From assembly GCA_038062375.1 (NCBI GenBank), contig JBBTXG010000005.1, forward strand, positions 51,273-115,272: a stretch of 64,000 bases of DNA, given 5' to 3'. The position numbers and the translations under genes were made by a program. The notes under the pieces are model-generated. The model searched no databases. It was given only the letters and a program-made list of their open reading frames with translations, and was not told where the DNA came from. Source of the DNA: Patescibacteria group bacterium (GTDB lineage Bacteria; Patescibacteriota; Minisyncoccia; Minisyncoccales; UBA10102). Of the stretch, positions 3,678-26,084 are shown piece by piece (within the stretch, counting starts at the first letter, position 1; every line of letters starts with the position of its first letter).

Positions 3678-4250
3678 ATGCTTTCCTACTTTGATCTCCG
3701 TAAAGGCATACAATTTATTTATGAGGACCAACCTTACGAGGTTTTAGATTTCAAACAAATGGGGAAATCCCAAGATGTGGTTGTTGCCCAGACAAAGATC
3801 CGCAATCTCATTGACGGACGCGTCTTGCAAAAGAACTTCCATCAAAAAGAGACTTTTCAGGAGGCGGATGTTTCAAAGTTTCAAACAAAGTTCATTTACA
3901 GTAATCGAGGGAAATATGTGTTCTGCGAAAAGGATAATCCATCCAAGCGCTTTGAACTCACCGCAGAACAGATTGGACAAGGAACCCAGTTCTTAAAGCC
4001 AAATGAGATGGTAGAGGGATTACTCTTTCAAGATAAGATTATCAATATCTCGCTTCCTATCAAGGTGCAACTTGCCGTGAAAGATGCTCCCCCAGGACTC
4101 AAAGGAGATAGCGCGAAAGGAGGCACCAAAATCGTAAGGCTTCAAACCGGCGCTGCGGTAAATGTTCCTCTGTTCATCGAGACCGGAGATATTATTGAGA
4201 TAAACACCGAGACCGGAGAATATGTGCGACGAATATTGGATGGCGCATAA
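3678..4250 (+). CDS. efp: elongation factor P
   Basis: 190 aa. DLRKGIQFIYEDQPYEVLDFKQMGKSQDVVVAQTKIRNL, typical EF-P. Confidence 0.95.
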   Translation: MLSYFDLRKGIQFIYEDQPYEVLDFKQMGKSQDVVVAQTKIRNLIDGRVLQKNFHQKETFQEADVSKFQTKFIYSNRGKYVFCEKDNPSKRFELTAEQIGQGTQFLKPNEMVEGLLFQDKIINISLPIKVQLAVKDAPPGLKGDSAKGGTKIVRLQTGAAVNVPLFIETGDIIEINTETGEYVRRILDGA

Positions 4251-4272
4251 TGCTACGCGAACAATCAAGAAA

Positions 4273-4300
4273 AGTTGTCGTCAGAGGTTTGACGACAACT
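4273..4300. terminator. perfect 11-bp stem hairpin between convergent efp and a small minus-strand ORF
   Basis: AGTTGTCGTCA-gaggtt-TGACGACAACT. No strong T-tract on either side. Confidence 0.45.
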
Positions 4301-4341
4301 CAAGACCTAACCCTTACCTCTTCCACGAATTTCTAATGCTT

Positions 4342-4566
4342 TCAAGCAGTACTATTCCCTTCCTCCGAGAAAGACATAGGGAAAAATCGGGAGTGGTATT
4401 TTGTCCGAACTCGCCCCCGTAGATGGGGATCTTTGTTGATAGCTTGAACGGTTACAAAAATCTGATGGAAAGGTCCTATGCCGCGGCAAAAGGGACACTC
4501 TTGCTCATCGCAATCGAATAGAAGACCACAACACTGATTCCATCGGTCTCCATTTGCATCGACCAT
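4342..4566 (-). CDS. small Cys-rich hypothetical protein (74 aa)
   Basis: Internal ATG of ORF 4342..4695, preceded by AAGGAGGgaggaagagATG. Candidate promoter TTGTCT-16-TATACT at 4618..4645. Hairpin 4273..4300 lies downstream. Sequence includes CCGLLFDCDEQECPFC. Confidence 0.45.
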   Translation of the reverse strand: MVDANGDRWNQCCGLLFDCDEQECPFCRGIGPFHQIFVTVQAINKDPHLRGRVRTKYHSRFFPMSFSEEGNSTA

Positions 4567-4617
4567 CTCTTCCTCCCTCCTTCCTAAGTCTCCGTACTTC
4601 TCGTACGACCTACTTTC

Positions 4618-4645
4618 AGTATAGACTGTTCTGCAAGAAAGACAA
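4618..4645 (-). promoter_or_regulatory. candidate sigma70 promoter for the small Cys-rich ORF
   Basis: Minus strand TTGTCT-16 nt-TATACT. Sits back-to-back with the plus-strand promoter at 4646..4674. Confidence 0.35.
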
Positions 4646-4674
4646 TTTACAGAAGCTCGCACTTCAGCTATACT
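4646..4674 (+). promoter_or_regulatory. candidate sigma70 promoter giving a leaderless CBS-HPF mRNA
   Basis: TTTACA-17 nt-TATACT, then 5 nt, then the ATG at 4680. No SD sequence. Confidence 0.45.
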
Positions 4675-4679
4675 GGAGT

Positions 4680-5828
4680 ATGGACCAAACTTCATTCGAT
4701 ATCGACATTCGTTCCATTCTCATACCGGCAACAAAGGTATTGCGCGCAAGCCCGGAAGACACTCTCGATCATGCCCTTGCGAAAACTCAAAGCAGTCACG
4801 ATGCAGTGTTTGTCTTTAACGAGGAGGACAAGTTCCTCGGCTTCGTCTCTCCTTCGTATGCATTCTTTCGAAAACGATATCCCTATACCACAAAGATTAA
4901 GTCGTGCCTGGTCAATCCTCCCCATATCACGGATAGTACTTCGATTTTCCAGATCGCAGAGTTTATGGTGGCCACGGGAATTTATACCCTTCCCGTATTC
5001 CAAGGAGAAAGAATTTCAGGCCTCATTACTGCAAAGAGTATCTTGAGGGTTCTCGAACAAAACCAAAGCTTCTTTTCGCAAGTTGCTCGAGTGCTCAAAC
5101 CAGAAAATCCGGTTACAACTCCTTCCACTTCTTCTGCCCAAACAATCTACACGCTCATGCGTGAAAAGAAAATATCTCGGGTTGTGTTAGTGGGGACAAG
5201 CGGAAGAGTCGACGGAATCGTATCTCGACGAGATCTCCAGTTTCTTCTGGCTAAACCCGGTCCACGCCAAAGAATAAAAACAGGCGGCAAGGGATTTTCG
5301 AGAAGTTATGTGTTTGGCATAGAGAAAGAATCCCGCCTGAATGTGCCTGTAGCGCCCTTTGCCCAACGAAATGTACTCCTTGAAGATATGAGTACGGGCA
5401 AAGAGAATATCCTTGAGCGGCTTATCAATTCAGAAAAAAACAGCATCGTTATTGTAGATAAAGATAATAGACCAACAGGAATCATTTCGATTCGCGTACT
5501 CCTTCAAGCACTTGTCTTCCTCAAACCAGAGTTGCAAATTCCGGTGATTATAAAGAACGCCGGGCATCTGCGACATCTGGAGGTACAATGGGTGAAAGAA
5601 CTTGCATATAAACTTGGAATAAAACTCTCCAAACGCTCTCCCATCGAACGCATCGAAATCGCAATCAAAGAATCAAAAGATCCGGTAGGAAGGCCCGATG
5701 AATTCGAACTTGCCTTTCACATTCTCTTTTTCTCGGGCAATACGCTCATCGCATCAGGGAAAGACCGAGATTTCAAAAAAGCAGTAAGGAAAACAATCCA
5801 ACGAATAAAACGACAACAGCCCTCCTAA
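4680..5828 (+). CDS. CBS-domain (two Bateman modules) protein with a C-terminal HPF/RaiA-like domain
   Basis: Internal ATG (MDQTSFD...) of ORF 4554..5828. Four CBS-like segments. The C-terminal ~95 aa (IPVIIKNAGHLRHLEVQWVKELAYKLG...ASGKDRDFKKAVRKTIQRIKRQ) follow the beta-alpha pattern of ribosome hibernation factors. Confidence 0.7.
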   Translation: MDQTSFDIDIRSILIPATKVLRASPEDTLDHALAKTQSSHDAVFVFNEEDKFLGFVSPSYAFFRKRYPYTTKIKSCLVNPPHITDSTSIFQIAEFMVATGIYTLPVFQGERISGLITAKSILRVLEQNQSFFSQVARVLKPENPVTTPSTSSAQTIYTLMREKKISRVVLVGTSGRVDGIVSRRDLQFLLAKPGPRQRIKTGGKGFSRSYVFGIEKESRLNVPVAPFAQRNVLLEDMSTGKENILERLINSEKNSIVIVDKDNRPTGIISIRVLLQALVFLKPELQIPVIIKNAGHLRHLEVQWVKELAYKLGIKLSKRSPIERIEIAIKESKDPVGRPDEFELAFHILFFSGNTLIASGKDRDFKKAVRKTIQRIKRQQPS

Positions 5829-5874
5829 CGGATCGCATCGCTCTCTTGGGTGCAAGCAGATCGATACTCTTTCT

Positions 5875-7272
5875 TTAGACAGAGTGATTCGTGGATCCTA
5901 CAAATCGAAAATCTTTGATTTTCATCGCAGGGACTACTACCCCGCCAGGAAAGGAAATGTTTAGAGGGTCGAACACGAGTCTCGAAGGAGACATTGCCTC
6001 TATGCGCTTGAAGGCTTCTGGAATACTTTCTTGAAAACGCACATTCTCAACCGGCCCTATCACTTTTCCGTTTTCGATCAAAAATACCCCGTGCGAGACT
6101 ACGCCAGTCATGGTTGCGGTTTGATAATGCTTCATTCCCGGATAATGGAGTTTCGTTACCCAGAGAGTCGGCCGAATTGCATTGGCAAGCATCTCTTCCA
6201 TAGAAGTATTACCTCCTTCGATTACCAAATTAAAAGGGACTGCTCCTTGAGATCTGAAAGATGGCGAAAGCGCGTTTCCGGTTGGGATATGATTGTACTT
6301 TTTTGCAAGCGTATTGTCGTATACTGCATTTCTTGCAACTCCCTTTTCAATAAGGTAAAGAGTCTTTCTCGGTCTTCCTTCAAAATCAAATGGAATTCCC
6401 ATTCCTTGGGTTCTCGGATCGAAAGGATCGTCTTTGATGCTCACGTTCGAGCCCGTTATGAGATTTCCTATGTTGCCCGAAATAAAACTTTCTCCTTTTT
6501 CGACAAACAGCCCATTGAATCCAAAGATGCCCATCCACTCAAATAAAGGAGCAAAAAAGTAAGGCTCGCCGATGAGATCAATCTTGAGTTCTTCTCCCTC
6601 TCTCATTTGAGCGAAAAGATCAATTTTTGCTTTCCCTCGAGCCAAATCGCATTTGTAGACAAGTTCGCGAAGGATGCGGTCCGTATCAAGTGAATCGAGC
6701 GATATGCCGCCAGAACTTGCATAGGCTGAAACAGAAGGATTATATCGATCGAATGCAAACAACCCCGCACAAGCGAGAGTAAAACGCATTGTTTGGGAAA
6801 CGCCAAGAGAATTTTCATAGGTCATCCGGCCTCTTGCCTGTGCGATTTTTCCAGAGAGGAAAAGACCGTGCTTTTCCAATACCTGAATAACTCGTTTTAT
6901 GGTTATCATGCGACCTTCTCCATCAAGTTCTGTAGTCTTCTCATTAAATAGTTCATTTCTCGGAGAAACAGAAGGAAAAGTATCTGTAGGAAGAATAATC
7001 TCTTGCTCTGGCAGAAGATCCATTTGAGCTACCATTTTTCCGATGAGCTCTTCCCCAAGGAAAGGGTTGTCGAACCGGACTGCTTTCCTTCGGTTTTTTC
7101 GCACAAGCGCAAGATCAATTCCCCACTGTTCTCCTGCGGGCGGCTGATCCACCTGTCCTTGTTTAATTCGCTTGAGGGAAATTTCGGTTTTGGTCGCCAC
7201 GACCTCGCAGAATTCAACCCCATACCTTTTTGCTATCGTAAGGATATCTTGTGCTACTTTTGTTGTATCCAT
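5875..7272 (-). CDS. pmbA: TldD/PmbA-family metalloprotease, PmbA(TldE)-like
   Basis: 465 aa. Family-typical length and C-terminal beta-rich region. Paired with a tldD-like gene. Confidence 0.8.
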   Translation of the reverse strand: MDTTKVAQDILTIAKRYGVEFCEVVATKTEISLKRIKQGQVDQPPAGEQWGIDLALVRKNRRKAVRFDNPFLGEELIGKMVAQMDLLPEQEIILPTDTFPSVSPRNELFNEKTTELDGEGRMITIKRVIQVLEKHGLFLSGKIAQARGRMTYENSLGVSQTMRFTLACAGLFAFDRYNPSVSAYASSGGISLDSLDTDRILRELVYKCDLARGKAKIDLFAQMREGEELKIDLIGEPYFFAPLFEWMGIFGFNGLFVEKGESFISGNIGNLITGSNVSIKDDPFDPRTQGMGIPFDFEGRPRKTLYLIEKGVARNAVYDNTLAKKYNHIPTGNALSPSFRSQGAVPFNLVIEGGNTSMEEMLANAIRPTLWVTKLHYPGMKHYQTATMTGVVSHGVFLIENGKVIGPVENVRFQESIPEAFKRIEAMSPSRLVFDPLNISFPGGVVVPAMKIKDFRFVGSTNHSV

Positions 7273-7295
7273 GTTTTGGTTGTCTCCATTGGCTT

Positions 7296-8801
7296 TTATC
7301 CAACTGCTCCTACCCGGATATTGCTAAAATATGCCGGCGACGCTCCATGTCCCGTGTGCACGACCTGCAGAGGATCTGCTTTCCCGCAGGATCCCACCCC
7401 TTGCAATTGAAAACTTTTCTCATCGCATACGATTTGGCAATTCCGCCAAAAGTTGAGGTTGTCTCCATAATACTTCGCGTTTTTTCTGATCTCCCATTTT
7501 CCATTCACCTTCTCGAATGCAATTTCTGTACCAAACGTAAAGTGCCGCCGTACGTCATCAATACTCCAGCTTTTATTCGTTCCAAATAGTATGGTTCCAT
7601 TGGGAACAGAGTCTTTCAGATCTTCAAAGTCTGTCTCTCCGGGTTCTACAATTATATTCGTCATACGGATTACCGGCCAATCTCCATAGCTTTCAGTTCG
7701 CACCGCTCCGCTCGGCTGTTTGAAATATTCCCGGCCGATTTTTTGATTCAAAAGCGGTACCGTTTCTCTTGAGGTGAGAAGTCCTACCCAAACTCCATTC
7801 GTTACGAGCGGCATTCGTTGGGCGGGCGTTCCTTCGTCGTCATAGCCAAATGTCCCTACGCCGCCTTCCAAAGTGCTATCAGCCCTGATGTTTACTTTCT
7901 CTGATCCGAATCGAAATTTCCCTATCTCCGAAAGAAGAGGAGTCAAAAAACTTCCTCCAGCTAACGTCCATTCGCTCCCCAATGTTCGATCTGCCTCAAA
8001 TCCATGAACTGTCTCATGGCTATGAAGATTGAGCATTGACTGCAGAAGAATGATACCACGATTCCCCGAAGGAGCACGCGGCGCTTCCAAAAGCTGTTCC
8101 GCTTCTTTTGCGATCTTTGCAGCATTCTCCACAAGTTCGAGTTTTTTAATGTATTCGTATCCTCCTTGCATATAATAGAAATGAGAATCTGGCCATGAGC
8201 GCCGCTGGATATCTCCACCTTGTTGCGCTATCGCATGTGCCTGCAAAGAGGCTCCGCATTCAATAATTGTTTGATCAGTCCGTACTCCTTCACTGCAAGC
8301 AAAAAGTTTGCGCGTTTTAAGGATTGCTATCTCCCCAATTCGCCAAAATACTTTCTTTGAAGTCTGAACTATTGCTTCATCGGCTGAAGTTAAGAGCTTT
8401 AATTTCTCATCGAGAGAAACTGCAAAAGGATCGATTTCTATTCGTGTTTGGTATATTCCGACTTTTTCTTTCTCCCAGAGTTCCGCCCGAGGAACAAGGA
8501 AAACCTTCTCTTTTTGAAAAGAAGAGTTGATGCTTGCACTATGAATTGCCCGTCTTACTACGGTTTCGATGTTTTCTTTTTTGAGAATGGGACTTCCATA
8601 AAACCCCCAACTTCCATTCATAAGTAAGCGCACCCCAAATCCAGCGCTCCTGGAAGAATTCAAAGCGGTAATCTGTCCATTTTCAAGTTTTATCTCCTCT
8701 GATTCTTGCTCGGGGCACAGCCTGCAATCCGCATATTCTGCGCCAAGCCTTTTTGCCTGCCAAAGTACTTCTTGTACGAATTGTTGATATTCTGATTCCA
8801 T
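7296..8801 (-). CDS. tldD: TldD-family metalloprotease
   Basis: 501 aa. GFGVRLLMNGSWGFYGS and HETVHGFEADR metal-site-like motif. Confidence 0.85.
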   Translation of the reverse strand: MESEYQQFVQEVLWQAKRLGAEYADCRLCPEQESEEIKLENGQITALNSSRSAGFGVRLLMNGSWGFYGSPILKKENIETVVRRAIHSASINSSFQKEKVFLVPRAELWEKEKVGIYQTRIEIDPFAVSLDEKLKLLTSADEAIVQTSKKVFWRIGEIAILKTRKLFACSEGVRTDQTIIECGASLQAHAIAQQGGDIQRRSWPDSHFYYMQGGYEYIKKLELVENAAKIAKEAEQLLEAPRAPSGNRGIILLQSMLNLHSHETVHGFEADRTLGSEWTLAGGSFLTPLLSEIGKFRFGSEKVNIRADSTLEGGVGTFGYDDEGTPAQRMPLVTNGVWVGLLTSRETVPLLNQKIGREYFKQPSGAVRTESYGDWPVIRMTNIIVEPGETDFEDLKDSVPNGTILFGTNKSWSIDDVRRHFTFGTEIAFEKVNGKWEIRKNAKYYGDNLNFWRNCQIVCDEKSFQLQGVGSCGKADPLQVVHTGHGASPAYFSNIRVGAVG

Positions 8802-8806
8802 ATGAA

Positions 8807-9286
8807 TTATTGCTCCAGAGAAACAAGATGGAAATGGAGATATCCTATCGTTTGATATCTTGGTCCATTGGTGACGATCTTATATTTTTTGAGATTTTTT
8901 TCTTTGATAAGGGAAGACATAACCGCGTAAGCGTCGAGAAGATACTCGCCATCTTCATCTGATATCTCGCCCGCATTTGGAATATCTTTCTTGGGGATAA
9001 TCACAAAATGAACATCTGCTCTGGGAAAGGGGTGGCGTATCGCTATCGTTTTTTCGGTTTCTTTCACCACAAAGGGAATCAAGTTGGAAAATCTTTGGAT
9101 ACCCACGGATGCTGCCAATCCAGTTAGCTCTTGGGGCTCCAGACATGTATTTTTACACTCGTGAAACGCCAAGAAGGAACGCGTTCTTGTATCAGAAAAA
9201 AGGTATCCACCGAGCAAAATACCCACGAAGAAAATCGCGAGAAACAGGAAAATCGTTTTTGTTTTCAGAGAGAATATGGTTGCCAT
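8807..9286 (-). CDS. membrane-anchored HIT (histidine triad) family protein
   Basis: ATG MATIFSLK... inside ORF 8807..9355, which opens with TTG. N-terminal TM helix, then C-terminal GYLHFHLVS histidine triad. Confidence 0.7.
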   Translation of the reverse strand: MATIFSLKTKTIFLFLAIFFVGILLGGYLFSDTRTRSFLAFHECKNTCLEPQELTGLAASVGIQRFSNLIPFVVKETEKTIAIRHPFPRADVHFVIIPKKDIPNAGEISDEDGEYLLDAYAVMSSLIKEKNLKKYKIVTNGPRYQTIGYLHFHLVSLEQ

Positions 9287-9348
9287 TGTAAGATATTGGA
9301 CTACTGTTGATTGTAACAGATATCTCGTTGCCGTGGAATTTTGCATGG

Positions 9349-9378
9349 AATACAAAGGAGGCGCCTTTGCGCGCCTCC
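9349..9378 (-). terminator. intrinsic terminator
   Basis: Minus strand GGAGGCGC-gcaaag-GCGCCTCC followed by TTTGTATT. Confidence 0.7.
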
Positions 9379-9542: not shown

Positions 9543-9571
9543 ATTATATCCCCTCCCATCGTACTTGTCAA
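9543..9571 (-). promoter_or_regulatory. consensus sigma70 promoter
   Basis: Minus strand TTGACA-17 nt-TATAAT, an exact consensus. Confidence 0.65.
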
Positions 9572-9686: not shown

Positions 9687-9852
9687 GATGGGGGGAGTTC
9701 CACAAAATTATTTCTCTCTTCGCTGGATTACATCAACGAGCTGCTCGAGAGCATTTCGATGGGGAGTTAGACCAAGTGGAACCAAATTTTTCTTTGCTCT
9801 TCTGATATACATTTGCGCGAGCGCAAGCGCTCTTTCTTTCGCATGTATTTTC
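9687..9852. repeat. left copy of the direct repeat (duplicated 3' end of the polyprenyl synthase gene)
   Basis: 9700..9840 matches 13278..13418 with 3 mismatches in 141 nt. Weaker similarity continues on both flanks. Confidence 0.9.
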
Positions 9853-9857: not shown

Positions 9858-9900
9858 CGGTCTCTTTCTTGTTTTCTTGATTGCGTTGCCATGTTCCTCC

Positions 9901-10115
9901 TTACTTTATTTCTAGAACCCATTTGCGCTTCATCACGTAGTTCCATCCATCGTCTGGAGAGAATACCGTACGAAGGCTTCCTACCTCGTCAAAGGCAAGA
10001 AAGACATTTTTATTGGTATCGTAGAAACCGAAGCGATCAAGTTCCGTTGATCCCTCTAAATGTATCCAATGAGTCTGACAGCCCCACCCTCGGTCTTCAT
10101 GATCTGGAGAGCGCC
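9901..10115 (-). pseudogene. decayed orphan toxin C-terminal cassette
   Basis: 10059..10115 is 53/57 identical to 10894..10950 inside the toxin gene and encodes ALQIMKTEGGAVRLIGYI followed by TAG. A shifted frame then reads ...LDRFGFYDTNKNVFLAFDEVGSLRTVFSPDDGWNYVMKRKWVLEIK*, which parallels the resident toxin tail. There is no start codon. Confidence 0.65.
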
Positions 10116-10135
10116 TTGTGGGCTAGGCTTGTACA

Positions 10136-10176
10136 GAAGAAAACAAAACAAAAGGGCCAGCGCGTTTGCACTGGCC
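10136..10176 (-). terminator. intrinsic terminator of the toxin-immunity operon
   Basis: Minus strand GGCCAG-tgcaaacgcg-CTGGCC followed by CTTTTGTTTTGTTTTCTTC. Confidence 0.6.
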
Positions 10177-10205: not shown

Positions 10206-10529
10206 CTACTCCTTTTGGTAGTCTTTCAGTTGTACTCCGATTGTACGGAGCTGTTCTTCGAGGTTCCAATTTTCGGGTTTCAAATCGAACTTATCCAATT
10301 TAATTCCCTTTTGAACCCATTCATCTGCATGCCATGGAGTTCCTTCCTGGAGCCATCTACGACGATTTATTTCTGCGCTTTCTGGTGTACAATCCTGATA
10401 CCCAGACTCTGCACCACAGCAAGGACAAATCTCGTACTCAGGATATCCTGATTCATCGTAGAATGCGTCTGAATTGCGATACCCACAGACACGGCAGATA
10501 TACTTTTTTTTATTGTTCACATTCTCCAT
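10206..10529 (-). CDS. Cys-rich CPCC-type zinc-ribbon protein, candidate immunity protein
   Basis: 107 aa, starting 4 nt after the toxin stop codon. CRVCGY...EICPCCGAESGYQD arrangement (CxxC + CPCC). Confidence 0.6.
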   Translation of the reverse strand: MENVNNKKKYICRVCGYRNSDAFYDESGYPEYEICPCCGAESGYQDCTPESAEINRRRWLQEGTPWHADEWVQKGIKLDKFDLKPENWNLEEQLRTIGVQLKDYQKE

Positions 10530-10533
10530 ACTC

Positions 10534-12969
10534 CTATTGCCCTAAGAAGTAGTCGTAGTTCGTGGGATAGCCATGGATGGCAGGATCTGGCTTGTAGAAT
10601 GTTTTAATTCTTCCATCTGCTGCTTTTATTCCGAAGTGTTCCGTTACGGTGTCAAACCGAATGATATCTCCATTGGCACGCGTTTTGGTCAGAAGCGTAC
10701 CACCAGCAGAACGGTTCATGAACATCTTTCCAAGCCATTCATATTCAACCTCGCTTTGAACTCCCAACCTTGCTCCATGGTCTTTGAAATGCTGACTCAA
10801 CCGTATAGGATCAAAGCCCTTGTGGTGTATGTACTGTAACACCTCCTCGCCATGTTTGTCTACTATTGTGAGTATCTTCGTGCCGTACTTGGCAATGTAT
10901 CCAACGAGTCTGACTGCCCCGCCCTCGGTCTTCATGATCTGGAGAGCACCTGCCGCGGCCTTGATGACCCGAGGCGCACTCTTGAGGGTTCGGATCGAGA
11001 TTCCACCTATGCCGCCAGTGCAACTGGTTTCCAAGCAGCCCCAGATTGCTTCAAGGAATTCCTGTCTGAAGCGCTCTTCCTCGGTAAGACACTCATTCGG
11101 GCCGCAGGGTCGTATCTCTCCTCCTGCGAAGCGTGGCTGGAGAGCTCGGGCAAGGCGGATGTTGGCTGTGAGTGAGTTGAGCTTGGTTCTGGTGCTTGAG
11201 CCCACAAAGCCAGTTCCTTGGGTGAGACCAAGAGGAGTCAGGATTTCCATGGTATACTTCTCTTGGAATCGGATAACGGCATTTTCGGTCAAGGGGCCAA
11301 AGTAGTCGGTCTCCTGTCCTGGAGAGCCTGGTCCTTCGATTGCTACTGCGGTATCCAAGTAGGTATTGAGAACGATCTGGAGGCACCGCACATCCTCTCC
11401 GCCCATTTCTCGCTTGAGATCAGTGTGGAATACGCAGTCTTCCGCAAGTGCGTAGTTGGACCATTGCGTCTTTGCGACAAGAGCTTGTTGATCTATTGGC
11501 TTGGGAGAACGGATAGGGTTGAGCCCCAGCGCTTTTGCTTCTTCTTGGCTAAGGTTTGTTTCTCTGCCTGCTGGTCCGAGTTCCGGATGAGAACTTAAGC
11601 CTCCTTTGTGCAGAGCTTCTTGAATGGCAATGAGAGTTCCGTCTCGAAGGGGAGATTGTGCAGAACCAAGATCTGCGATGTTGAATCTTGCTATACTTTC
11701 TTCCGAAACTCCAAAGATCTTTGCCAGCTCTGATCGGTAAACGGCAAACCCGCTTTTGTTGAGCAGCCAGTTCGTGTAGCTTGAAATGGATTGATTGTTG
11801 ATTTGGCCTGTCCCATCGGTGTGTCCGAGAAATACCGTACCTCCTGGATTGACTTCTACTCCACCTCCGATGATGCCAAAGCTCCTGGCGAGACTCGAGG
11901 TTTCCGCCCGTGCGTCGGAAAAGGCGATACCTTCATTGAATTTCTTGTGTACCACTCCGTTCACGAAGATTTCGCTTCCAGCTCCGCCGCTCGCATACTC
12001 ATAGCGGAGAATCACCACGTGGGTTGCTTTGCGGACAATGTAGTCGAACTGCCTTCCGAGACGGATAAACGTTTTTGCATTGGGTCCGCTATCAGATTCC
12101 GAGAATATCGCGCAATCCGCAGGAATGTCAAACTCGAACTTCTTGGCTGGAATACCGCCGTACGCTGGATTGTAATGAACGATGCGCTCGGGCTTCCCAG
12201 GCCTACATCCCTGTTTTGCAGCTTCGAGAGCCTGCTGTTCCTCTATTGCTTTCTGGATTTCTTCAACCAGTACCCAGATTTCGTTGATCTGCCGTTGAAT
12301 CTCTTGCTCAACAGGTATGGGCGTAGCAGTTGGTGTCGGAGCAGGCGTAGGAGTAGGAGTCAGAGGCACTGGTGTTGAGGTTGGAGTCTGTTGGTCTGCT
12401 GCTCCATACACCATAACCTCTACCCATGGGTTTCCTGGTTCGTCTATCCCAGCATCAGAGTTGCCATTGCTCCATACTCTGATATATCGATGGGATTGGC
12501 TAGGAGAGAGGATGATCTCCTTTCCTTCCAAGAAAGACTCAAGTTCGAGAGCTTGAACTATGGATGTCCAGGTCACGTTGTCTGAAGAACCCTCTACCTG
12601 TACTTGATGTAAGATCCTTTTCTTCCCTTGTTGGTACAAAGGATAGAGAACTATCTTGCAAGCAAGGTATGCCTTTCCTAGATCAATGGTAAATGATTGT
12701 TTGCCTGTTCCTACAAGGGTGTACTCTCCGGAGTCTTTGGGGATGAGTCCATTGGTGAGAATGGAGATCTCATTCGCTTCAATCTTTGCCTGTGTGGAGA
12801 CTGGTGCGTCTTTTGCGATGTTGGGTGTGGCTCCATCTCCGCATTGTTCTCCCTGCGCTGTTCCTTGAGAGAGCACAAGGGAAATGGCAAGGAGGCTCGC
12901 AAGGATGAGTATGCTTCCCAAGAGGATACAAGGTTTGCCTGCTTGAATGATCCTGCTGATCAAATACAT
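10534..12969 (-). CDS. Sec-exported multidomain polymorphic-toxin-like protein (discoidin-like + PT linker + PG_binding_1-like + variable C-terminal module)
   Basis: ATG at 12969 preceded by AAAGGAGtgcacaaa; the track ORF opens 9 nt upstream at a GTG. N-terminal hydrophobic signal or anchor. F5/8-type-C-like segment (SFTIDLGKAYL...VEGSSDNVTWTSIV...HRYIRVW...VEVMVYG). Linker TPTSTPVPLTPTPTPAPTPTATP. PG-binding-like GEDVRCLQIVLN...YFGPLTENAVIRFQEKY. Junction AAGALQIMKTEGGAVRLVGYI, then a ~110-aa tail. Confidence 0.75.
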   Translation of the reverse strand: MYLISRIIQAGKPCILLGSILILASLLAISLVLSQGTAQGEQCGDGATPNIAKDAPVSTQAKIEANEISILTNGLIPKDSGEYTLVGTGKQSFTIDLGKAYLACKIVLYPLYQQGKKRILHQVQVEGSSDNVTWTSIVQALELESFLEGKEIILSPSQSHRYIRVWSNGNSDAGIDEPGNPWVEVMVYGAADQQTPTSTPVPLTPTPTPAPTPTATPIPVEQEIQRQINEIWVLVEEIQKAIEEQQALEAAKQGCRPGKPERIVHYNPAYGGIPAKKFEFDIPADCAIFSESDSGPNAKTFIRLGRQFDYIVRKATHVVILRYEYASGGAGSEIFVNGVVHKKFNEGIAFSDARAETSSLARSFGIIGGGVEVNPGGTVFLGHTDGTGQINNQSISSYTNWLLNKSGFAVYRSELAKIFGVSEESIARFNIADLGSAQSPLRDGTLIAIQEALHKGGLSSHPELGPAGRETNLSQEEAKALGLNPIRSPKPIDQQALVAKTQWSNYALAEDCVFHTDLKREMGGEDVRCLQIVLNTYLDTAVAIEGPGSPGQETDYFGPLTENAVIRFQEKYTMEILTPLGLTQGTGFVGSSTRTKLNSLTANIRLARALQPRFAGGEIRPCGPNECLTEEERFRQEFLEAIWGCLETSCTGGIGGISIRTLKSAPRVIKAAAGALQIMKTEGGAVRLVGYIAKYGTKILTIVDKHGEEVLQYIHHKGFDPIRLSQHFKDHGARLGVQSEVEYEWLGKMFMNRSAGGTLLTKTRANGDIIRFDTVTEHFGIKAADGRIKTFYKPDPAIHGYPTNYDYFLGQ

Positions 12970-13267: not shown

Positions 13268-13430
13268 GATGGAGTTTCCACAAAATTACTTCTCTCTTCG
13301 CTGGATTACATCGGCGAGCTGCTCGAGAGCATTTCGATGGGGAGTTAGACCAAGTGGAACCAAATTTTTCTTTGCTCTTCTGATATACATTTGCGCGAGC
13401 GCAAGCGCTCTTTCTTTCCCATGAGTTTTC
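13268..13430. repeat. right copy of the direct repeat (functional 3' end of the polyprenyl synthase gene)
   Basis: See the left copy. Offset between copies is 3578 nt. Confidence 0.9.
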
Positions 13431-14296
13431 TGTATATATGAGCTGACCCTTTTTACATCTGAATTTGTTATAACCCTCTTGGTCAAAATTCTTCTCACCT
13501 CCGTCCGTTTTTCAAAAGGTAATTCTTGGAGCGCAAAAAATATCAGAATGTTTCCGAGTTTCCGTTCGCGAATATCTTGTCCTAATGGCTTTCCAAACTC
13601 TTGAGTGCCATAGATATCTAAGATGTCGTCGGTAATCTGAAATGCAATCCCTACATTTCTGCCGTATTGCTTTAACGCCAAAATTTTTCGCCTTGGCGCT
13701 TTTGGCATCAAAGCTCCAATCTCACAGGAAGATTCAAACAAAAACGCGGTTTTCTTTTCTGCCATACCCAGATAGTCTTGCAGGGTTATTTTTCCAAAAC
13801 GATGAGTTGTTGCATATGGCTCATCAACTCTCCCGCTTTGTTCAAAAAGAATATCCAAAATTTCTCCCTCTACAATTTTCTTGATGGTCCTGGCAAAGAT
13901 TCTCGCAATGAGCTGCGGCTTGGAAGTTCTCGCTGCAGCTTCCAATAAAGAGGCTCCGTAATCCATTCCCACGCATTCTGCAAACGATCTTCCAAACTTT
14001 CGCCATGTGGTAAGCTTTCCCCTTCGCTTGTCGCTATGGTCAATGATGTCATCAATGATCAAACTATACGTATGGAGAATCTCCAAGCCCGCGGCGGCCT
14101 CCAGTACATCTTGAACTTTTCCTCCACACGCAAAACAACAAAGTATTGCCAGGCAAGGCCGCAGGCGCTTTCCTCCTGTCTCAATCTGATAGAAGAGAAG
14201 TTTCCTTGTTTTGTTCTCTGCTCCGAGCGCGAGGAGTTTCTTTATTACGGGATCAACTTTTCTTGCAATATGTTGAAAGTTCGCATCGAGATCCAT
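13286..14296 (-). CDS. polyprenyl (geranylgeranyl/farnesyl-type) diphosphate synthase
   Basis: ATG MDLDANFQ... lies 7 nt after the uppS stop; the longer track ORF overlaps uppS. Two Asp-rich motifs, IIDDIIDHSDKRRG and FQITDDILD. Confidence 0.9.
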   Translation of the reverse strand: MDLDANFQHIARKVDPVIKKLLALGAENKTRKLLFYQIETGGKRLRPCLAILCCFACGGKVQDVLEAAAGLEILHTYSLIIDDIIDHSDKRRGKLTTWRKFGRSFAECVGMDYGASLLEAAARTSKPQLIARIFARTIKKIVEGEILDILFEQSGRVDEPYATTHRFGKITLQDYLGMAEKKTAFLFESSCEIGALMPKAPRRKILALKQYGRNVGIAFQITDDILDIYGTQEFGKPLGQDIRERKLGNILIFFALQELPFEKRTEVRRILTKRVITNSDVKRVSSYIQKTHGKERALALAQMYIRRAKKNLVPLGLTPHRNALEQLADVIQRREK

Positions 14297-20396: not shown

Positions 20397-22133
20397 TTAC
20401 CACGCAGTAACTTTTATGAGATCAACATTCGCATCTTCTTCAGCTCCAGACATTTTCCCACGGAATCGAAGCCGAAGGTTTGGTATGCTGTTTAACTCAA
20501 TACTTTTATTGTGCCATTTATTTTCTTGGTCCACATTTCCGCGCAAACGTCCTTTTTCGTTCCAAGTCGCTCCTCCATTTGTTGAAACATCGAAGGCAAT
20601 ATACTCTCCTTTATCAAGACTGCTCTCAATATACCACGAAAAAGTGATCTTCGCATTTGTTTTTCCCTGCAAATCAATCGGAGAAGAGATGAGTGCGGCA
20701 TTTGAGGCATATCCATCGACTTGCGCAGAATAGATTCCATCTACTGCCCGCTGCGTTGATTGAAACCAATCATTCTGTGCATCTTGGGTCCAATTCCCTA
20801 AACCGCCTTCAAAACTATCCATCCATACAACAGTTTCAGGCGGCGGGGGCGGACCAGGAGTCCACGCCAAAGCAGCTTGTGCATTCACGAGACCGTATCC
20901 ATAGATATCATCCCTGCCAGAAGCTCCCAGGTCTTCTGCGCTTTGTTCAAGAGCTTGACGGACTTGAGTTGGAGTTGTGGCATTGCCTTTGGAAATCACC
21001 ATTGCTGCCACTCCTGCCACATGAGGAGTTGCCATAGATGTTCCTTGGAAGAACCAATATCCAAGATCTGCTCTGTTTTTGGTATTGGGATTAAAAGTAT
21101 TCTGCAAAACTCCATCTGCGTATCCATCGCCATTCTGGTCAACATTGAGATCTCCTCCAGGGCCCATGATATCAAGATTTGTCCCGTAGTTTGAATAGAA
21201 AGCGCGCGTCTCGTCATAGCGAGTTGCTCCTACTGCAACTGCGTAGCTATCGTATGCCGCGGGATAAGAAATAGTATTTGTTCCATCATTTCCCGCCGCG
21301 GCGACAATGGTAACTCCTTTGCCATAGGCATACGCCAAAGCCTCCTCTAAATAGCTCGCAGGAGAAGGGCCACCAAGAGAAAGGTTTATAACCTTCGCTC
21401 CATTATCGGCAGCAAATCTGATTCCGTCTGCGACATTGGCGTATGTGCCGCTCCCATTTTTATCAAGTACTTTCACGGGCATAATGCAAGAACTAAATGC
21501 AACCCCTGCGACGCCTTTCCCATTATTTGTGCTTTGAGCAACAGTGCCTGCAACATGGGTTCCATGGGAGTTATCATCGTTCGCATGTGTATCATTTTCT
21601 ACAAAGTCATATCCTCCCACAAAACACGTATTTGCCAAATCCGGAGCCAAGTAATACTTTTGCAATCCATTTTGATAGTCTTCATAAGCCACACCCGTAT
21701 CAACAACCGCGACCACTACTCCTGTACCGCTCGATACATCCCACGCGGGCTCGGTATGAATGCCTCCATATACTCCATTGGAAAAATGCCATTGAAGACT
21801 ATAGTACGTATCATCTGGCACCAAGGAGGCTTTCGCAATATAATTCGGTTCCGCATATTCCACATCCGGACGGCTTCGATATTGCAAAAGTGTTGCTTGC
21901 ACATCTTGGAATCGGGGAATGCTCACTTTTTGAAACCAATTTTCTCCTTTGAACTTTACAATCATTTCGCCTTGCACATATCCATTTCCTCCATGAGTAC
22001 CATATCCATCGAGAAATTGATTTGCTTCATGTACTTCTCCCAATCCAAAAGCAGATCCAACCCCACTCGAAAACAGAAGACCAACACTCAAGATTACAAT
22101 ACGCAACATAGAGAATATACTATTTCTTCTCAT
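20397..22133 (-). CDS. secreted subtilisin-like (S8) serine protease with a C-terminal beta-sandwich-like domain
   Basis: Signal peptide. Catalytic D (VVDTGV), H (HGTHVAGT) and S (GTSMATPHVAG). PGPPPPP linker, then a ~150-aa extra domain. Confidence 0.9.
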   Translation of the reverse strand: MRRNSIFSMLRIVILSVGLLFSSGVGSAFGLGEVHEANQFLDGYGTHGGNGYVQGEMIVKFKGENWFQKVSIPRFQDVQATLLQYRSRPDVEYAEPNYIAKASLVPDDTYYSLQWHFSNGVYGGIHTEPAWDVSSGTGVVVAVVDTGVAYEDYQNGLQKYYLAPDLANTCFVGGYDFVENDTHANDDNSHGTHVAGTVAQSTNNGKGVAGVAFSSCIMPVKVLDKNGSGTYANVADGIRFAADNGAKVINLSLGGPSPASYLEEALAYAYGKGVTIVAAAGNDGTNTISYPAAYDSYAVAVGATRYDETRAFYSNYGTNLDIMGPGGDLNVDQNGDGYADGVLQNTFNPNTKNRADLGYWFFQGTSMATPHVAGVAAMVISKGNATTPTQVRQALEQSAEDLGASGRDDIYGYGLVNAQAALAWTPGPPPPPETVVWMDSFEGGLGNWTQDAQNDWFQSTQRAVDGIYSAQVDGYASNAALISSPIDLQGKTNAKITFSWYIESSLDKGEYIAFDVSTNGGATWNEKGRLRGNVDQENKWHNKSIELNSIPNLRLRFRGKMSGAEEDANVDLIKVTAW

Positions 22134-22381: not shown

Positions 22382-24799
22382 CTATCCTTCCTCGTTTTTT
22401 TCTTCCTTTTGCTGTGGTCTTACCACATTAATGCCGCTCGAAGCGATGTTTGATTCTACTTCGTACCCTCCATTCCATGTCCCTCCCATTCCCTTCACCT
22501 GTGCTCTGTTGATGTAGATGCCGGCCTTGGCATCTTTGCTGAACACCGTTGTATATTCTACGATAATTTCTTCGTGGGGAAAAATTTGGTCAAGCTCCCA
22601 TTTCTTTTGGTGCACCACTTCTCCTTTCTCGTTTTCTAAAGCATCGCTAAGTACGGCGTGATAAGCCGGCCAGTCGCTCTCGTTCATGATAACCACCCTA
22701 TAGTCAACAGTGCCTCCGGGAGGAATAAGGTGATAAGAAGTACGACTCTTTACAATGTGCAAATCAGGCTTTGGAGTAAAAGGACGAAACACACAGTCGA
22801 CACATGCGGAGCGCGACTCGAGATTCGAGGGAGGTAGAGGAGGCATTTCTCGAAAAACTGCAAAGCTTACGGTTTCAAAATTATCTTCGTTATTCTCATC
22901 GGTTTCAAAACTCTCCACAGCCACCTTGCTTGTAACTTGAGTAGAGCCATAGGGAATATCCTGATTCACGTTTGCTGCGAAAGAAATTTCTTTTGACCCT
23001 CCTGCCAGAATAGTTCCAAGATCCCAAGATATTTCATCTCCCTGAACGCTTGCCCCATCTTCTATTGAAGCTAAGGTGAGATAACTGTTCTCAAATGTAC
23101 CTTTGAGATTCACCTTCGTTGCATCAGCGTCTCCATTGTTGACTACCGTAAGATGATACATAACTTTCTCCCCAGGTCCGATGGGATCTCGAGGAACTTC
23201 AACGCGTTCTCCAACCCAAAGATCAGGCCTTCCAAAAGCAACATTCCCCTTCCAATCTCCGAGAATATTGATAAGAGCAAGTATCCAGTTCCTGCCGATC
23301 ACATTGGTGTTCACCACATTCACAAGATTTGCAACCGCATATGCATTTCCAGTTTCAATGATTCCTTCCCCATCGTTTTCAATCTTATTTTTTCCAGTGA
23401 GCGCAAATACCTGTATGTTATTCTTGAGGGAAGCATCATTCGCGTTTTCGATATTTCTCTCAAAACCTGACTGCGACTGGTCAACACACATTTGTTTTTG
23501 GAGATCAAGAGACGGATCGCTATAAAGGATGAGGCCATCTGAAGTTTCTTGCCACACAATGCCAGGGGGCAGACTAAACATATTTCCGGCCCAATCGCCT
23601 GCGATTCGAAAAAGAGCAAAAAAGGAGCTTCCGCCGAAAAGATTGGTATTTACCTGATTTACTGTATTCGCTGCGGCAAACGAGGAACCGGTGCGCACCG
23701 CACTTGTTCCTTGGGCGCTCAATGCTTCGTTGGCTCCAGTCTGTGCACGGACCTCTATGGTGTTTTCTACCTGGGCTTGGTTGTGGTTCTCAATTATGGT
23801 TTGCGAGGAATTATCTGTCGTCTGGCAAGCCTCGGGCAACCCTTCTTGCGTTCCATTTCGATCTCCGGGCGAAGAAAAGAATTGAGAGAAAAATGACGCC
23901 GCAGGGAACACCATATCACCTTGCAACGAACCAAAATTATTTGCAACAAAGAAGAGATAGTTGGAATCGACAATATTGGTATTTACGATATTTACCATAT
24001 TCGCAGCTCCATATGCTGCGCCCGTCTGGATAGAACCGCCTCCGTTGCTATTGGAAACTGCGTTCATTCCTGTAATGGATCGCACGATCATGGTGTTTGT
24101 GACGGCAGCGCTGCTTTGAGATTGCGCATCAAGATCAATCGTATCGCACCCTGCCAAAGGACACTTGGCTCCCTCCAGCCAATTCCCTTGGCTAAAAAGA
24201 TCAAGATTCCTCAAATCAATATCTCCGAGCAATCCTCGAAAATTGGAAAACAACAAAAACAATCCATTGGAATCGAGTATATTGGCATTGACCACATTCA
24301 CGACCGTAGCACTTGCTTGTGCTTGACCCGATTGAATTGCTGCATCTTCCCCATCTTCCGTAACCGTGTTTCCACCGGTTTGAGATTCTACTTCGGTCGT
24401 ATTGACTACCTTCGCCTCATTTTCCCCTTCAAGCTGAACTTCAGAATGCTCATTCGCTTCTGCTTGAGCATCACTCGTATCTCCACTCACTTGTTCTTGA
24501 ATGGCAGGGTCAGGAGAACGAGAACTGCCATCTTCTTGATCTTGAGGCTGTTCCGTAGAAATTTCCTGTTGTGAATCTTCTGTCGGTGAAGATGGAGTAG
24601 ATACTTGCTCTTGCTCTGAAGATTCCTCTGTGCTTTCTTGCGCGGTCTCTGTTTCTTGCGCGCTTGAAAAATTCAGTTCAAAAACAGAAACGGCTCCATA
24701 GAAAAAAAAGATCAATCCAAATCCAATCCCAAACAGAATTTTGGAGAATTTTGCCGGAAGATAATTGAAGAAAAATATGTTAAAAAATGGTGAGCCCAT
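22382..24799 (-). CDS. large membrane-anchored surface protein: acidic linker + 4 novel repeats + 2 DUF11-like domains
   Basis: Start taken at MGSPFFNIFFF... (an ATG at 24886 is also possible). There are four copies of V..[TQ]TG.N...(I/V).TG.A.A.AN.VN.VNTN. The C-terminal region has DUF11-like segments (GEKVMYHLTVVNNGDADATKVNL; GGTVDYRVVIMNESDWPA). Confidence 0.8.
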   Translation of the reverse strand: MGSPFFNIFFFNYLPAKFSKILFGIGFGLIFFFYGAVSVFELNFSSAQETETAQESTEESSEQEQVSTPSSPTEDSQQEISTEQPQDQEDGSSRSPDPAIQEQVSGDTSDAQAEANEHSEVQLEGENEAKVVNTTEVESQTGGNTVTEDGEDAAIQSGQAQASATVVNVVNANILDSNGLFLLFSNFRGLLGDIDLRNLDLFSQGNWLEGAKCPLAGCDTIDLDAQSQSSAAVTNTMIVRSITGMNAVSNSNGGGSIQTGAAYGAANMVNIVNTNIVDSNYLFFVANNFGSLQGDMVFPAASFFSQFFSSPGDRNGTQEGLPEACQTTDNSSQTIIENHNQAQVENTIEVRAQTGANEALSAQGTSAVRTGSSFAAANTVNQVNTNLFGGSSFFALFRIAGDWAGNMFSLPPGIVWQETSDGLILYSDPSLDLQKQMCVDQSQSGFERNIENANDASLKNNIQVFALTGKNKIENDGEGIIETGNAYAVANLVNVVNTNVIGRNWILALINILGDWKGNVAFGRPDLWVGERVEVPRDPIGPGEKVMYHLTVVNNGDADATKVNLKGTFENSYLTLASIEDGASVQGDEISWDLGTILAGGSKEISFAANVNQDIPYGSTQVTSKVAVESFETDENNEDNFETVSFAVFREMPPLPPSNLESRSACVDCVFRPFTPKPDLHIVKSRTSYHLIPPGGTVDYRVVIMNESDWPAYHAVLSDALENEKGEVVHQKKWELDQIFPHEEIIVEYTTVFSKDAKAGIYINRAQVKGMGGTWNGGYEVESNIASSGINVVRPQQKEEKNEEG

Positions 24800-25262
24800 G
24801 GAAAGGTTTCCTGAAAAGAGAAGAAAGAAAAAAGAACACTCTTTGCCGCCATGACCGATTCTCGCCTTTCTCGATGTTTGGAACATTCTCGGCTTGTAAA
24901 GCAGATGCTTTACTTCCTCTTGGTGGATCGGCTTTGAGATACGCTTTCGTCTGCACTTTTATCTTTTTTTCCTTATCCTCATAGAAAGACTCTTTCTTTA
25001 ATTCTGCTGGTTTCTTTTCTTGAGAAACAACTCTTTCATCAATTTGTTCAACAATCCTTCCCTCAACTTTCGTCTCAACGCGAATATGTCCTGAAGAATC
25101 GTGTGTGCGCACCTCTTCTCTTTTTGCCACATTCCCACCGCTCAAAGCAGAAACTGAAACGTCATTCGTTATCGAAACTGATTTTGCGGCCACAGCGAGC
25201 GGACTCCAATATCCAACTCCCACTCCAAGAGATATGAGGACTATGTAAAATTCTTTGTTCAT
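24780..25262 (-). CDS. secreted hypothetical protein carrying a partial copy of the cluster repeat
   Basis: ATG MNKEFYIVLISLGVGVGYWSPLAVAA signal peptide. SITNDVSVSALSGGNVAK resembles the first half of the repeat unit. The 3' end overlaps the next gene by 20 nt. Confidence 0.55.
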   Translation of the reverse strand: MNKEFYIVLISLGVGVGYWSPLAVAAKSVSITNDVSVSALSGGNVAKREEVRTHDSSGHIRVETKVEGRIVEQIDERVVSQEKKPAELKKESFYEDKEKKIKVQTKAYLKADPPRGSKASALQAENVPNIEKGENRSWRQRVFFFLSSLFRKPFHGLTIF

Positions 25263-25369
25263 TGGTTCTCCCTCGGGCAAGAGTTTGACCTCTGCTCTGT
25301 ACGAACAATCAAACTCTCGCTCGAAGGAGAAAGCAGTTTCTTTACTACTGCTTTCGCCCTTCGCTCCGA

Positions 25370-26020
25370 TTAGTGCAAAATACGAGTAATGTTGGTATTC
25401 ACCACATTCGTTATGCTTGCACCAGCTAACGCATTGCCCGTATGGACTACACCGCCAATGCTTCCATTCCCGCCAGAGCCGCCATTTCCGCTGTGATTTT
25501 CATCTCCAGACGCGATCACGTCACCAGCATCGCCGCCAGATCCGCCTGATCCGCCAGAAGAGCTGTTACCGCTACTTAATGCGGCAACACCCACTCCATT
25601 ACCTACCAAAGCGCCATTTCCATTCGCAACCAAAATGAAATCTTCATCATCGTCATCATCATCACACGCACAATCATCAACAAGGGTATCATTCGTATTC
25701 ACCAGATTCGTGACGCTTGCGACAGCAGTTGCGTTGCCCGTGTGGACGAGACCGCCCATGCCGCCATCTCCACCAGAACCGCCGTTTCCGCCTACGTTCT
25801 CGTCGTCGGAAAACAATATAGTTCCGCCTTCACCTCCAGAACCGCCCTCTCCGCCGTCTGCGCTGTTGAGGCCGGTATCTGCAACCACTACAACCTCGTT
25901 GAGAACATACGCACTATTGCTGTTGCTGACGACCACTGTATCAGCCAACGCAGGCATCGCATACAGGCCTAACGATAATGCGGGCAGCATACTTATCGTG
26001 AGAGAAATTTTCGATATCAT
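25370..26020 (-). CDS. secreted Gly/Asp-rich two-module repeat protein (twin A)
   Basis: 216 aa. Signal peptide ...AMPALA/D. Two modules end in HTGNA.A.AS.TN.VNTN, joined by DDCACDDDDDDED. C-terminus NTNITRILH. Confidence 0.8.
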   Translation of the reverse strand: MISKISLTISMLPALSLGLYAMPALADTVVVSNSNSAYVLNEVVVVADTGLNSADGGEGGSGGEGGTILFSDDENVGGNGGSGGDGGMGGLVHTGNATAVASVTNLVNTNDTLVDDCACDDDDDDEDFILVANGNGALVGNGVGVAALSSGNSSSGGSGGSGGDAGDVIASGDENHSGNGGSGGNGSIGGVVHTGNALAGASITNVVNTNITRILH

Positions 26021-26084
26021 GTTTTTTGTTTGAGAACTGTCAATTTTTTTATTCGACCTTTCTCCATGAAATACACTAAGTTGT

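Follow-up and report, generated by a model that had tools for sequence, protein, structure and literature searches.

Is a toxin-tip fragment stranded behind its operon a cassette held in reserve, or the relic of an earlier exchange? Polymorphic toxin genes can swap their C-terminal tip, along with the immunity gene for it, at a conserved stretch upstream, and the previous tip can be left behind the operon together with a copy of this junction. We considered this question for a 64,000-nucleotide (nt) stretch of contig JBBTXG010000005.1 (hereafter "the window", i.e., the whole stretch that was analyzed), which derives from an uncultured bacterium in the 0.1-µm filter fraction of groundwater from a Hainich aquifer well. 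On its minus strand, a toxin gene and a gene for a 107-amino-acid (aa) protein are followed by a short region, here called the orphan, that carries a second copy of a piece of the toxin gene. Our favored answer, to which we assign a probability of roughly 0.7, is that positions 9890–10116 of this polymorphic toxin locus hold an orphan module that has decayed, i.e., the remnant of a displaced tip and the presumed beginning of its immunity gene. In minus-strand order (5′ to 3′), the locus runs from the polyprenyl synthase gene (14296–13286) through a 297-nt spacer to the 811-aa open reading frame (ORF), the 107-aa ORF, a stem-loop with a T-run, and the orphan, with the following features:

13286–14296, minus strand: polyprenyl synthase gene (ORF list, Pfam)
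13276–13430, minus strand: polyprenyl synthase 3′ end in its native position, the left copy of a 155-nt direct repeat
10534–12969, minus strand: resident toxin ORF, 811 aa (ORF list; the same product is called in public assemblies)
10894–10951, minus strand: junction copy in the resident gene, residues about 674/675–692, GALQIMKTEGGAVRLVGYI (repeat and translation)
about 10537–10812, minus strand: resident toxin domain, the last ~90 aa, with a predicted colicin-D-like (BECR) RNase fold (PDB, HMMER, AlphaFold2, Foldseek)
10206–10529, minus strand: 107-aa ORF (ORF list)
10141–10176, minus strand: intrinsic terminator closing the toxin–immunity operon, with a 9-pair stem (10176–10155) including 7 GC pairs, then the T-run CTTTTGTTTT
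10059–10116, minus strand: orphan junction copy, encoding GALQIMKTEGGAVRLIGYI and running directly into TAG at 10058–10056 (repeat and translation)
9901–10059, minus strand: orphan tip remnant, 52 codons and TAA, frame shifted relative to the junction (family profile, shuffles, phmmer)
9890–9902, minus strand: Shine–Dalgarno (SD) sequence AAGGAGG (9902–9896) and ATG (9892–9890), opening an ORF that begins MATQSRKQERDRW (read from the sequence)
9698–9852, minus strand: displaced copy of the polyprenyl synthase 3′ end (last 145 nt and 10 nt downstream), the right boundary of the cassette

The two junction copies form a direct repeat of 58 nt, detected in a repeat search of the window, in which 54 of 58 positions (93%) are identical. 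An initial annotation of this DNA, made from the letters alone, had counted 53 of 57 and had pointed out the peptide that both copies encode; the repeat is real, and on the minus strand both copies indeed translate to GALQIMKTEGGAVRL(I/V)GYI. With up to three mismatches allowed, a degenerate 58-mer matches only these two sites in the 64 kb and none of 100 shuffles, and the worry that the similarity might be confined to a low-complexity stretch is not borne out, as the sequence is not of low complexity. The similarity breaks off sharply at both edges of the repeat, within which the longest perfect block spans 26 nt. Apart from a repeat-protein gene at 23–27 kb, the window contains one other dispersed repeat of ≥40 nt, and it too is part of the toxin locus. 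Of the four differences between the junction copies, three fall on third codon positions and are synonymous, and one causes the V/I exchange, a pattern which suggests two diverged functional alleles rather than decay after a duplication. Relatives are ~30% identical in the junction stretch, and the junction reads as lineage-specific DNA rather than as a family-wide motif. In the resident protein, 119 residues come after the junction peptide, which stands directly upstream of the variable C-terminal module as had been proposed; in the orphan, the same frame ends immediately in the TAG.

The resident gene encodes 811 aa, or 814 aa if started at GTG 12978, and its product consists, in order, of an N-terminal signal or anchor, an F5/8 type C domain, a PT-rich linker, a PG_binding_1 domain, a pre-toxin region, and a C-terminal toxin domain. 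Pfam matches cover the F5_F8_type_C and PG_binding_1 domains, and the hydrophobic signal or anchor was read from the sequence. The protein is a polymorphic toxin of the Sec-type secreted, cell-wall-binding kind. When the full 814-aa protein was used in a word-index search, no protein besides itself was retrieved, while a word-based search with the 158-aa C-terminus returned six distant matches only, one of them a PT-HINT-domain protein (P0156). An exhaustive HMMER search of 1.84 billion representative proteins with the resident tip yielded 1229 matches at E ≤ 1e-3, and in nearly all of these otherwise unrelated proteins, which include Rhs-type and PAAR-like (G-rich N-terminal) ones, the domain is C-terminal, which is the signature of a polymorphic-toxin tip. 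The closest named of the close toxin homologues is annotated from a metagenome-assembled genome (MAG) of the Parcubacteria group. The source organism of the window may itself belong to the CPR. No Pfam or NCBIfam model matches the resident tip or the orphan tip.

Several lines of evidence relate the resident tip to colicin-D-like nucleases. A sequence search against the PDB connected it to 8ey4 (E 3.6e-6), its nearest solved counterpart, an entry annotated as a PT-VENN domain protein and described, for chain 8ey4_A, as a contact-dependent growth inhibition toxin–immunity complex of E. coli O32:H37. An AlphaFold2 model of the tip, based on a 28-sequence alignment, reached a pLDDT of 85 (core >95), and Foldseek aligned it to 8ey4_A with a TM score of 0.83 and to the colicin D tRNase structures 5znm, 1tfo, and 1v74 at a probability of 1.00. 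Within the tip alignment (A2), H36 is ≥90% conserved, H108 is invariant, and R73 and T99 are nearly invariant; these residues fit the two-histidine catalytic layout described for colicin-like BECR RNases (bioRxiv 10.64898/2026.08.28.747851). The resident tip thus shares with the 8EY4 subfamily both the likeness in sequence and fold and the conserved histidines, one in the leading helix region and one near the last strand, and we regard it as a predicted RNase. The toxin gene body (window 10700–12500) has a GC content of 0.50–0.53 vs 0.41–0.46 in the flanking housekeeping genes, which is compatible with a foreign origin. A candidate tandem recombination scar within the resident protein (IAKYGTKIL and IVDKHGEEVL) was dropped, since the alignment with relatives pairs AKYGT with an AxHPGD segment.

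The orphan has a second frame, offset from that of the junction, which is open from 10122 to 9904 (73 codons), stops at 9903–9901, and reads ...LEGSTELDRFGFYDTNKNVFLAFDEVGSLRTVFSPDDGWNYVMKRKWVLEIK*. The initial annotation had aligned this frame position by position with the resident tail, and the alignment is right: a family profile (hidden Markov model, HMM) of ~150 members matches YDTNKNVFLAFDEVGSLRTVFSPDD at profile positions 53–77 of 91 with 10.6 bits and an E-value of 3.5e-5 (a single pre-specified comparison, Z = 1). The real toxin excepted, this piece scores best of the 1895 six-frame pieces of the window, and none of 5000 shuffles reached its score (shuffle maximum, 7.0 bits). When the 52-aa orphan peptide itself was used as a phmmer query, dozens of family members were matched at the same motif, with the spacing YD..N.F.....G..RT.F.PD. 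The claim of homology rests on the family profile because a BLASTP comparison of the two tips, resident and orphan, gave nothing significant outside the junction; likewise, the orphan peptide had no match in a PDB sequence search, and a word search with the 52-aa tip identified no homologue sharing words.

What the orphan retains are the C-terminal strands only (YD..F..G..RT.F.PD), amounting to ~40% of the domain, while ~65–70 residues with the HFxxHG motif and two helices, as well as the H-G-Y-P-T-N segment, are gone. Its short ending, SPDDGWNY (SPDDGWNYV), resembles KPEKGIE in 8ey4 and KPWDGIDY (KPWDGIDYF) in an orphan of another locus (L019, see below), and is unlike the KPDPAIHGYPTNYDYF of the resident tip. 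From the partial profile match, the frame offset, and this short-type ending, we infer that the orphan is what is left of a divergent toxin from the resident's family, in a frame other than that of its junction. It lies on the same (minus) strand as the full toxin/immunity pair and downstream of it (toxin, 10534–12969; immunity, 10206–10529; orphan, 9901–10116), behind the terminator, which stands between the immunity gene and the orphan, and it has no SD-linked start in the junction frame. It would therefore be silent, as first annotated, with neither a delivery body nor expression signals of its own. With an incomplete domain, a frame that does not continue from the junction, and both the HFxxHG and the H-G-Y-P-T-N segments gone, it appears to be a non-functional, decayed module, which would be ordinary for loci of this kind.

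Directly behind the orphan tip comes a good SD sequence with an ATG. Its presence had been noted before; the coordinates then given (9889–9877) were 13 nt off the actual 9902–9890, and the ORF it opens has 41 codons rather than 39. The SD+ATG begins 8 nt after the orphan stop, and the toxin-to-immunity spacing in eight pairs examined is 4–15 nt. The ORF from ATG 9892 ends at 9767 and has 10–13 codons of its own, after which it is cut by the 155-nt repeat copy at 9698–9852 and continues into the synthase 3′ sequence in a foreign frame. Its N-terminus, MATQSRKQE, loosely resembles the MTQTQDEQR and MTEQQEQN of the immunity family, a likeness that is only suggestive, and the immunity HMM found no match in this ORF and no intact immunity gene after the orphan. 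The spacing nevertheless makes it probable that ATG 9892 once opened an immunity gene that the orphan has since lost, as the initial annotation had suggested.

The immunity function of the 107-aa gene is likewise argued from its pairing with the toxin. The protein is a zinc ribbon (CxxC...CxCC), and for all close toxin homologues that could be placed on a contig (L005–L010, L016, L017), a 94–107-aa protein, 55–65% identical, follows 7–15 nt after the toxin stop. Because such a gene is present after every close toxin homologue, it is likely the cognate immunity gene. An invariant pattern, CxxCG...CxCCG.ESGY...NRR.W.Q.G...LKP.NW.L, runs through these homologues, and no relative was found in Pfam, NCBIfam, or the PDB except weak rubredoxin-type zinc-ribbon matches. 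The zinc-ribbon immunity family ranges from Parcubacteria-like contigs to L019.

This last locus (L019, VSSQ01000087.1), which was recovered by a metagenome scan with the immunity alignment, contains an array of the same general order:

4082–5986: main toxin gene
5998–6258: immunity gene
6304–6696: ORF-less piece with the junction and a complete tip
6697–7017: second immunity gene
7092–7313: third immunity gene, shorter and truncated
7391–8389: further orphan with an unrelated tip, sharing a 177-nt, 91% repeat with the main gene of this locus

In the ORF-less piece, a junction peptide held in common with the main gene, N.KLGSLPGSGGTPSSPQF, is followed by a complete tip of the short-tail type, which covers HMM positions 5–75 and has 64% identity with the main tip. 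The order of main toxin, zinc-ribbon immunity gene, junction with tip, and immunity gene is that of the window, as is the short tail of the orphan tip; unlike the fragment of the window, the L019 orphan is complete and has an intact immunity gene. Orphan arrays of the classical kind do occur in this toxin/immunity family, and L019 shows an undecayed counterpart of the module.

The orphan and both genes of the operon lie within a larger block. The 3′ end of the polyprenyl synthase gene is duplicated (9698–9852 vs 13276–13430; 155 nt at 96% identity, extending loosely over 166 nt, to 9863). Between the two copies, which lie 3578 bp apart from start to start, are exactly the toxin–immunity operon with its terminator and the orphan behind it. 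Because this repeat encloses the whole 3.6 kb, the cassette, including the orphan, was probably moved or installed as one block through recombination anchored in the synthase gene. Besides the orphan, the 3578-bp segment holds just the two operon genes, with no site-specific recombinase, and it does not qualify as an integrative mobile element. A tandem duplication as the origin of the 155-nt repeat was rejected, as the sequences beyond both copies diverge at once. In a scan of genome contigs with the synthase, relatives of ≤50% identity only were found, none with the cassette, and no empty site was detected. Compared with 99.8%-identical sister assemblies (over 6.5 kb), 6–7 of ~11 differences fall within the displaced synthase copy (window 9695–9783), and two of these turn it into the state of the native copy; possible causes of this clustering are relaxed constraint, gene conversion, or assembler cross-talk.

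Other loci indicate what else can occupy this position. In the related contigs L009 and L016, the same slot upstream of TldD is taken by a toxin/immunity pair whose N-terminal body differs (LysM, He_PIG), without a repeat of the 155-nt type; in L009 the toxin is directly downstream of the synthase, and since the L016 contig begins inside the toxin gene, the synthase is visible in L009 only. The two loci (L009 3595–6937 and L016 43–2984) are mosaic relative to each other, with a body that is 90% identical, ~450 nt of pre-toxin sequence that cannot be aligned, and 83% identity from the IVDKHGTEVLQYI (IVDKHG) motif onward. One of their immunity proteins has a 12-aa insertion relative to the other, and the protein of the window shares it. 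Given this occupancy and mosaicism, the slot between synthase and TldD is a conserved site of toxin genes, in which recombination replaces the contents. Elsewhere, a Chloroflexota MAG (GCA_023489135.1; L011) encodes a serine recombinase (Resolvase/Recombinase) at about 11858–12212, ~5.6 kb downstream of the toxin homologue P0007.

Taken together, these observations are consistent with a history in three steps, whose direction and order we reconstruct from the present arrangement. First, a new tip–immunity module would have been installed by recombination at the junction, leaving the older tip and immunity gene downstream with a junction copy. Second, an internal deletion starting right after GYI, of a length that is no multiple of three, would have taken the front of the old tip (the N-terminal two thirds, with HFxxHG) and shifted the frame. 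Third, the event that duplicated the synthase 3′ end, be it a block insertion anchored there or a local rearrangement, would have removed the old immunity gene. The first two steps may have taken place either in this genome or in a donor.

A number of observations weigh against this reconstruction and kept our estimate from being higher. The orphan tip matches the profile over a short stretch of 25 residues (10.6 bits), and the window-wide E-value of this match is only 0.08–0.12, such that it is convincing solely since the place was specified beforehand. The synonymous bias between the junction copies is based on 4 sites (P about 0.05), and the likeness of MATQSRKQE to immunity N-termini is weak and of low complexity. 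A single displacement does not explain a deletion that starts exactly at the junction end, and two or three events are needed. Finally, neither a genome with an empty site nor one with the orphan type as resident was found in the synthase contig scan and in exact-protein look-ups, and the full-length allele with the orphan-type tail (LEGSTELDRFGFYD...VLEIK), for which the initial annotation had recommended a search, was not recovered by word search.

The alternative that survives best differs from the decayed-module reading in history only. Here, the orphan would never have been resident in this genome, having come already decayed within the 3.6-kb cassette from a related donor and having been placed next to the synthase by single-crossover or homology-facilitated illegitimate recombination at the synthase 3′ end. 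The 155-nt, 96% repeat that brackets toxin, immunity gene, and orphan together is what such an arrival would leave, the GC content of the toxin gene (0.50–0.53 vs 0.41–0.46 in the flanks) points in the same direction, and the slot holds different toxin bodies in L009 and L016. However, no empty-site genome or donor was found, the cassette has no recombinase, and a local rearrangement could also give the repeat. We consider this a serious possibility, if one that falls short of an even chance.

A second alternative holds that nothing beyond the 58 nt has meaning, these being a stray gene-fragment duplication made when the cassette was inserted, and that the tip-like frame and the SD+ATG arose by chance. 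The window-wide E-value of about 0.1, the non-significant BLASTP comparison with the resident tip, and the lack of a PDB match, a Pfam match, or a word-sharing homologue for the orphan peptide are all what this alternative would predict. Yet chance would have had to produce the best of 1895 pieces, at a targeted E-value of 3.5e-5 unmatched in 5000 shuffles, and to keep the family spacing YD..N.F.....G..RT.F.PD at which dozens of members are matched independently. It would also have had to yield a 73-codon open frame with its stop followed at 8 nt by an SD–ATG, as in real toxin/immunity pairs, and a tail (P-DDG-WNY) that parallels KPWDGIDY of L019 and KPEKGIE of 8ey4. We therefore judge a chance origin of the tip-like frame to be unlikely.

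Far less probable still is the idea, contained in the initial annotation, that the orphan is a usable silent cassette, i.e., an alternative tip in reserve that is switched in by recombination at the 58-nt junction. Its position and strand are those required, the junction is held in common and includes a 26-nt perfect block, and L019 has intact orphans from this toxin family. However, directly behind GYI the junction frame meets a TAG, the tip is encoded in an offset frame that comprises ~40% of the domain without HFxxHG or the ~65–70 residues around it, and no immunity gene follows the orphan. If the 58-nt copies recombined as they now stand, 835 bp would be lost, including the resident tip with its immunity gene and the terminator, and the remaining protein would end in ...GYI*; because this recombination yields a tip-less protein that has lost its immunity gene, the orphan as it stands cannot act as a switch cassette. 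Consistent with this, no recombinant or variant contigs were found among public assemblies.

An assembly artefact or a low-complexity coincidence can be dismissed with near certainty: although the short-read contigs L003 and L004 break at the 155-nt repeat, the identical orphan is carried by six loci from independent assemblies (ENA, Logan) of several Hainich groundwater samples, and the sequence is neither of low complexity nor matched in any of the 100 shuffles. Because of these six independently assembled loci, the orphan arrangement is no assembly artefact; exact-protein look-ups of the synthase and of the immunity protein returned the same arrangement only.

Returning to the decayed-module reading, its closest parallels are found among known toxin-exchange systems. 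Orphan cdiA-CT/cdiI modules downstream of cdiBAI loci were reportedly described by Poole and co-workers in 2011. Such cdi orphans are promoter-less, start-less tips with a short near-identical stretch upstream of the variable tip, and are generally read as the product or the substrate of tip exchange; typically they consist of a complete tip with an intact, often expressed, immunity gene, and some cdiA and rhs orphans have been shown to switch the deployed toxin by recombination. The orphan of the window is like these cdiA-CT modules in being a start-less tip fragment downstream of a main pair, on the same strand and with a near-identical junction stretch, but differs from typical cdi orphans in that its tip and its immunity gene are both truncated. 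The locus also differs from CdiA, as it has no VENN motif, FHA repeats, or CdiB and instead combines a Sec signal, a discoidin domain, and a peptidoglycan-binding domain.

In the displacement model for Rhs and MafB, an incoming tip–immunity module recombines at the end of the conserved core, and the old tip is pushed downstream, where it decays. This model would apply to the orphan as it does to displaced rhs-CT and mafB-CT tips, although the toxin of the window has no YD repeats, PxxxxDPxGL motif, or MafB N-terminal domain. The resident tip is like 8EY4 (CdiA-CT/CdiI, E. coli O32:H37) in sequence and fold and like colicin D (1V74, 1TFO, 5ZNM) in fold, whereas its delivery is neither through a type V secretion system nor that of a colicin, and its immunity protein is an unrelated zinc ribbon without a solved relative. 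The comparison with swapping in CdiA, Rhs, and MafB that was drawn at the outset is thus apt for the kind of displacement and does not extend to membership, since a motif scan of the resident toxin detected none of the VENN, DPxGL, and YD motifs and the corresponding Pfam domains are likewise absent. We would describe the locus as similar to orphan cdiA-CT, rhs-CT, and mafB-CT modules in function and history, and as a member of none of these families.

If so, the tip displacement known from CdiA, Rhs, and MafB would also operate in a Sec-secreted, peptidoglycan-binding toxin of an uncultured groundwater bacterium. The locus also brings together a colicin-D-like RNase tip family (predicted; >1200 representative proteins, without a Pfam or NCBIfam model match) and a conserved zinc-ribbon immunity family without a solved or curated relative. 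The orphan itself would have no function, its value being that of a dated scar from which the movement of the cassette can be reconstructed.

The nesting of the two repeats permits a further, more speculative reading. The 58-nt junction and the 155-nt synthase 3′ end each bracket an inserted block, and both might be traces of a single mechanism that moves toxin modules without a recombinase in an ultra-small groundwater bacterium, and by which circularized or linear toxin/immunity DNA of related strains integrates at a single homologous anchor, duplicating the anchor and pushing the previous occupant downstream. We think there is a small chance that this is correct. If it is, the slot behind the polyprenyl synthase would constitute a conserved landing pad, an interpretation suggested because different toxins occupy this slot in L009 and L016.

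In addition to the polyprenyl synthase gene, the locus is neighbored by HIT genes. Upstream of the HIT-family gene at 8807–9355, a sigma-70 consensus matching at 12 of 12 positions (TTGACA, 17 nt, TATAAT) is present at 9543–9571 on the minus strand. Further along the window, a cluster of secreted proteins (22382–26744, minus strand) encodes an 834-aa DUF11-domain protein and two ~217-aa Gly-rich paralogues, which hold ~300-nt internal repeats (GGSGG runs), and adjoins a subtilase gene (20397–22133).

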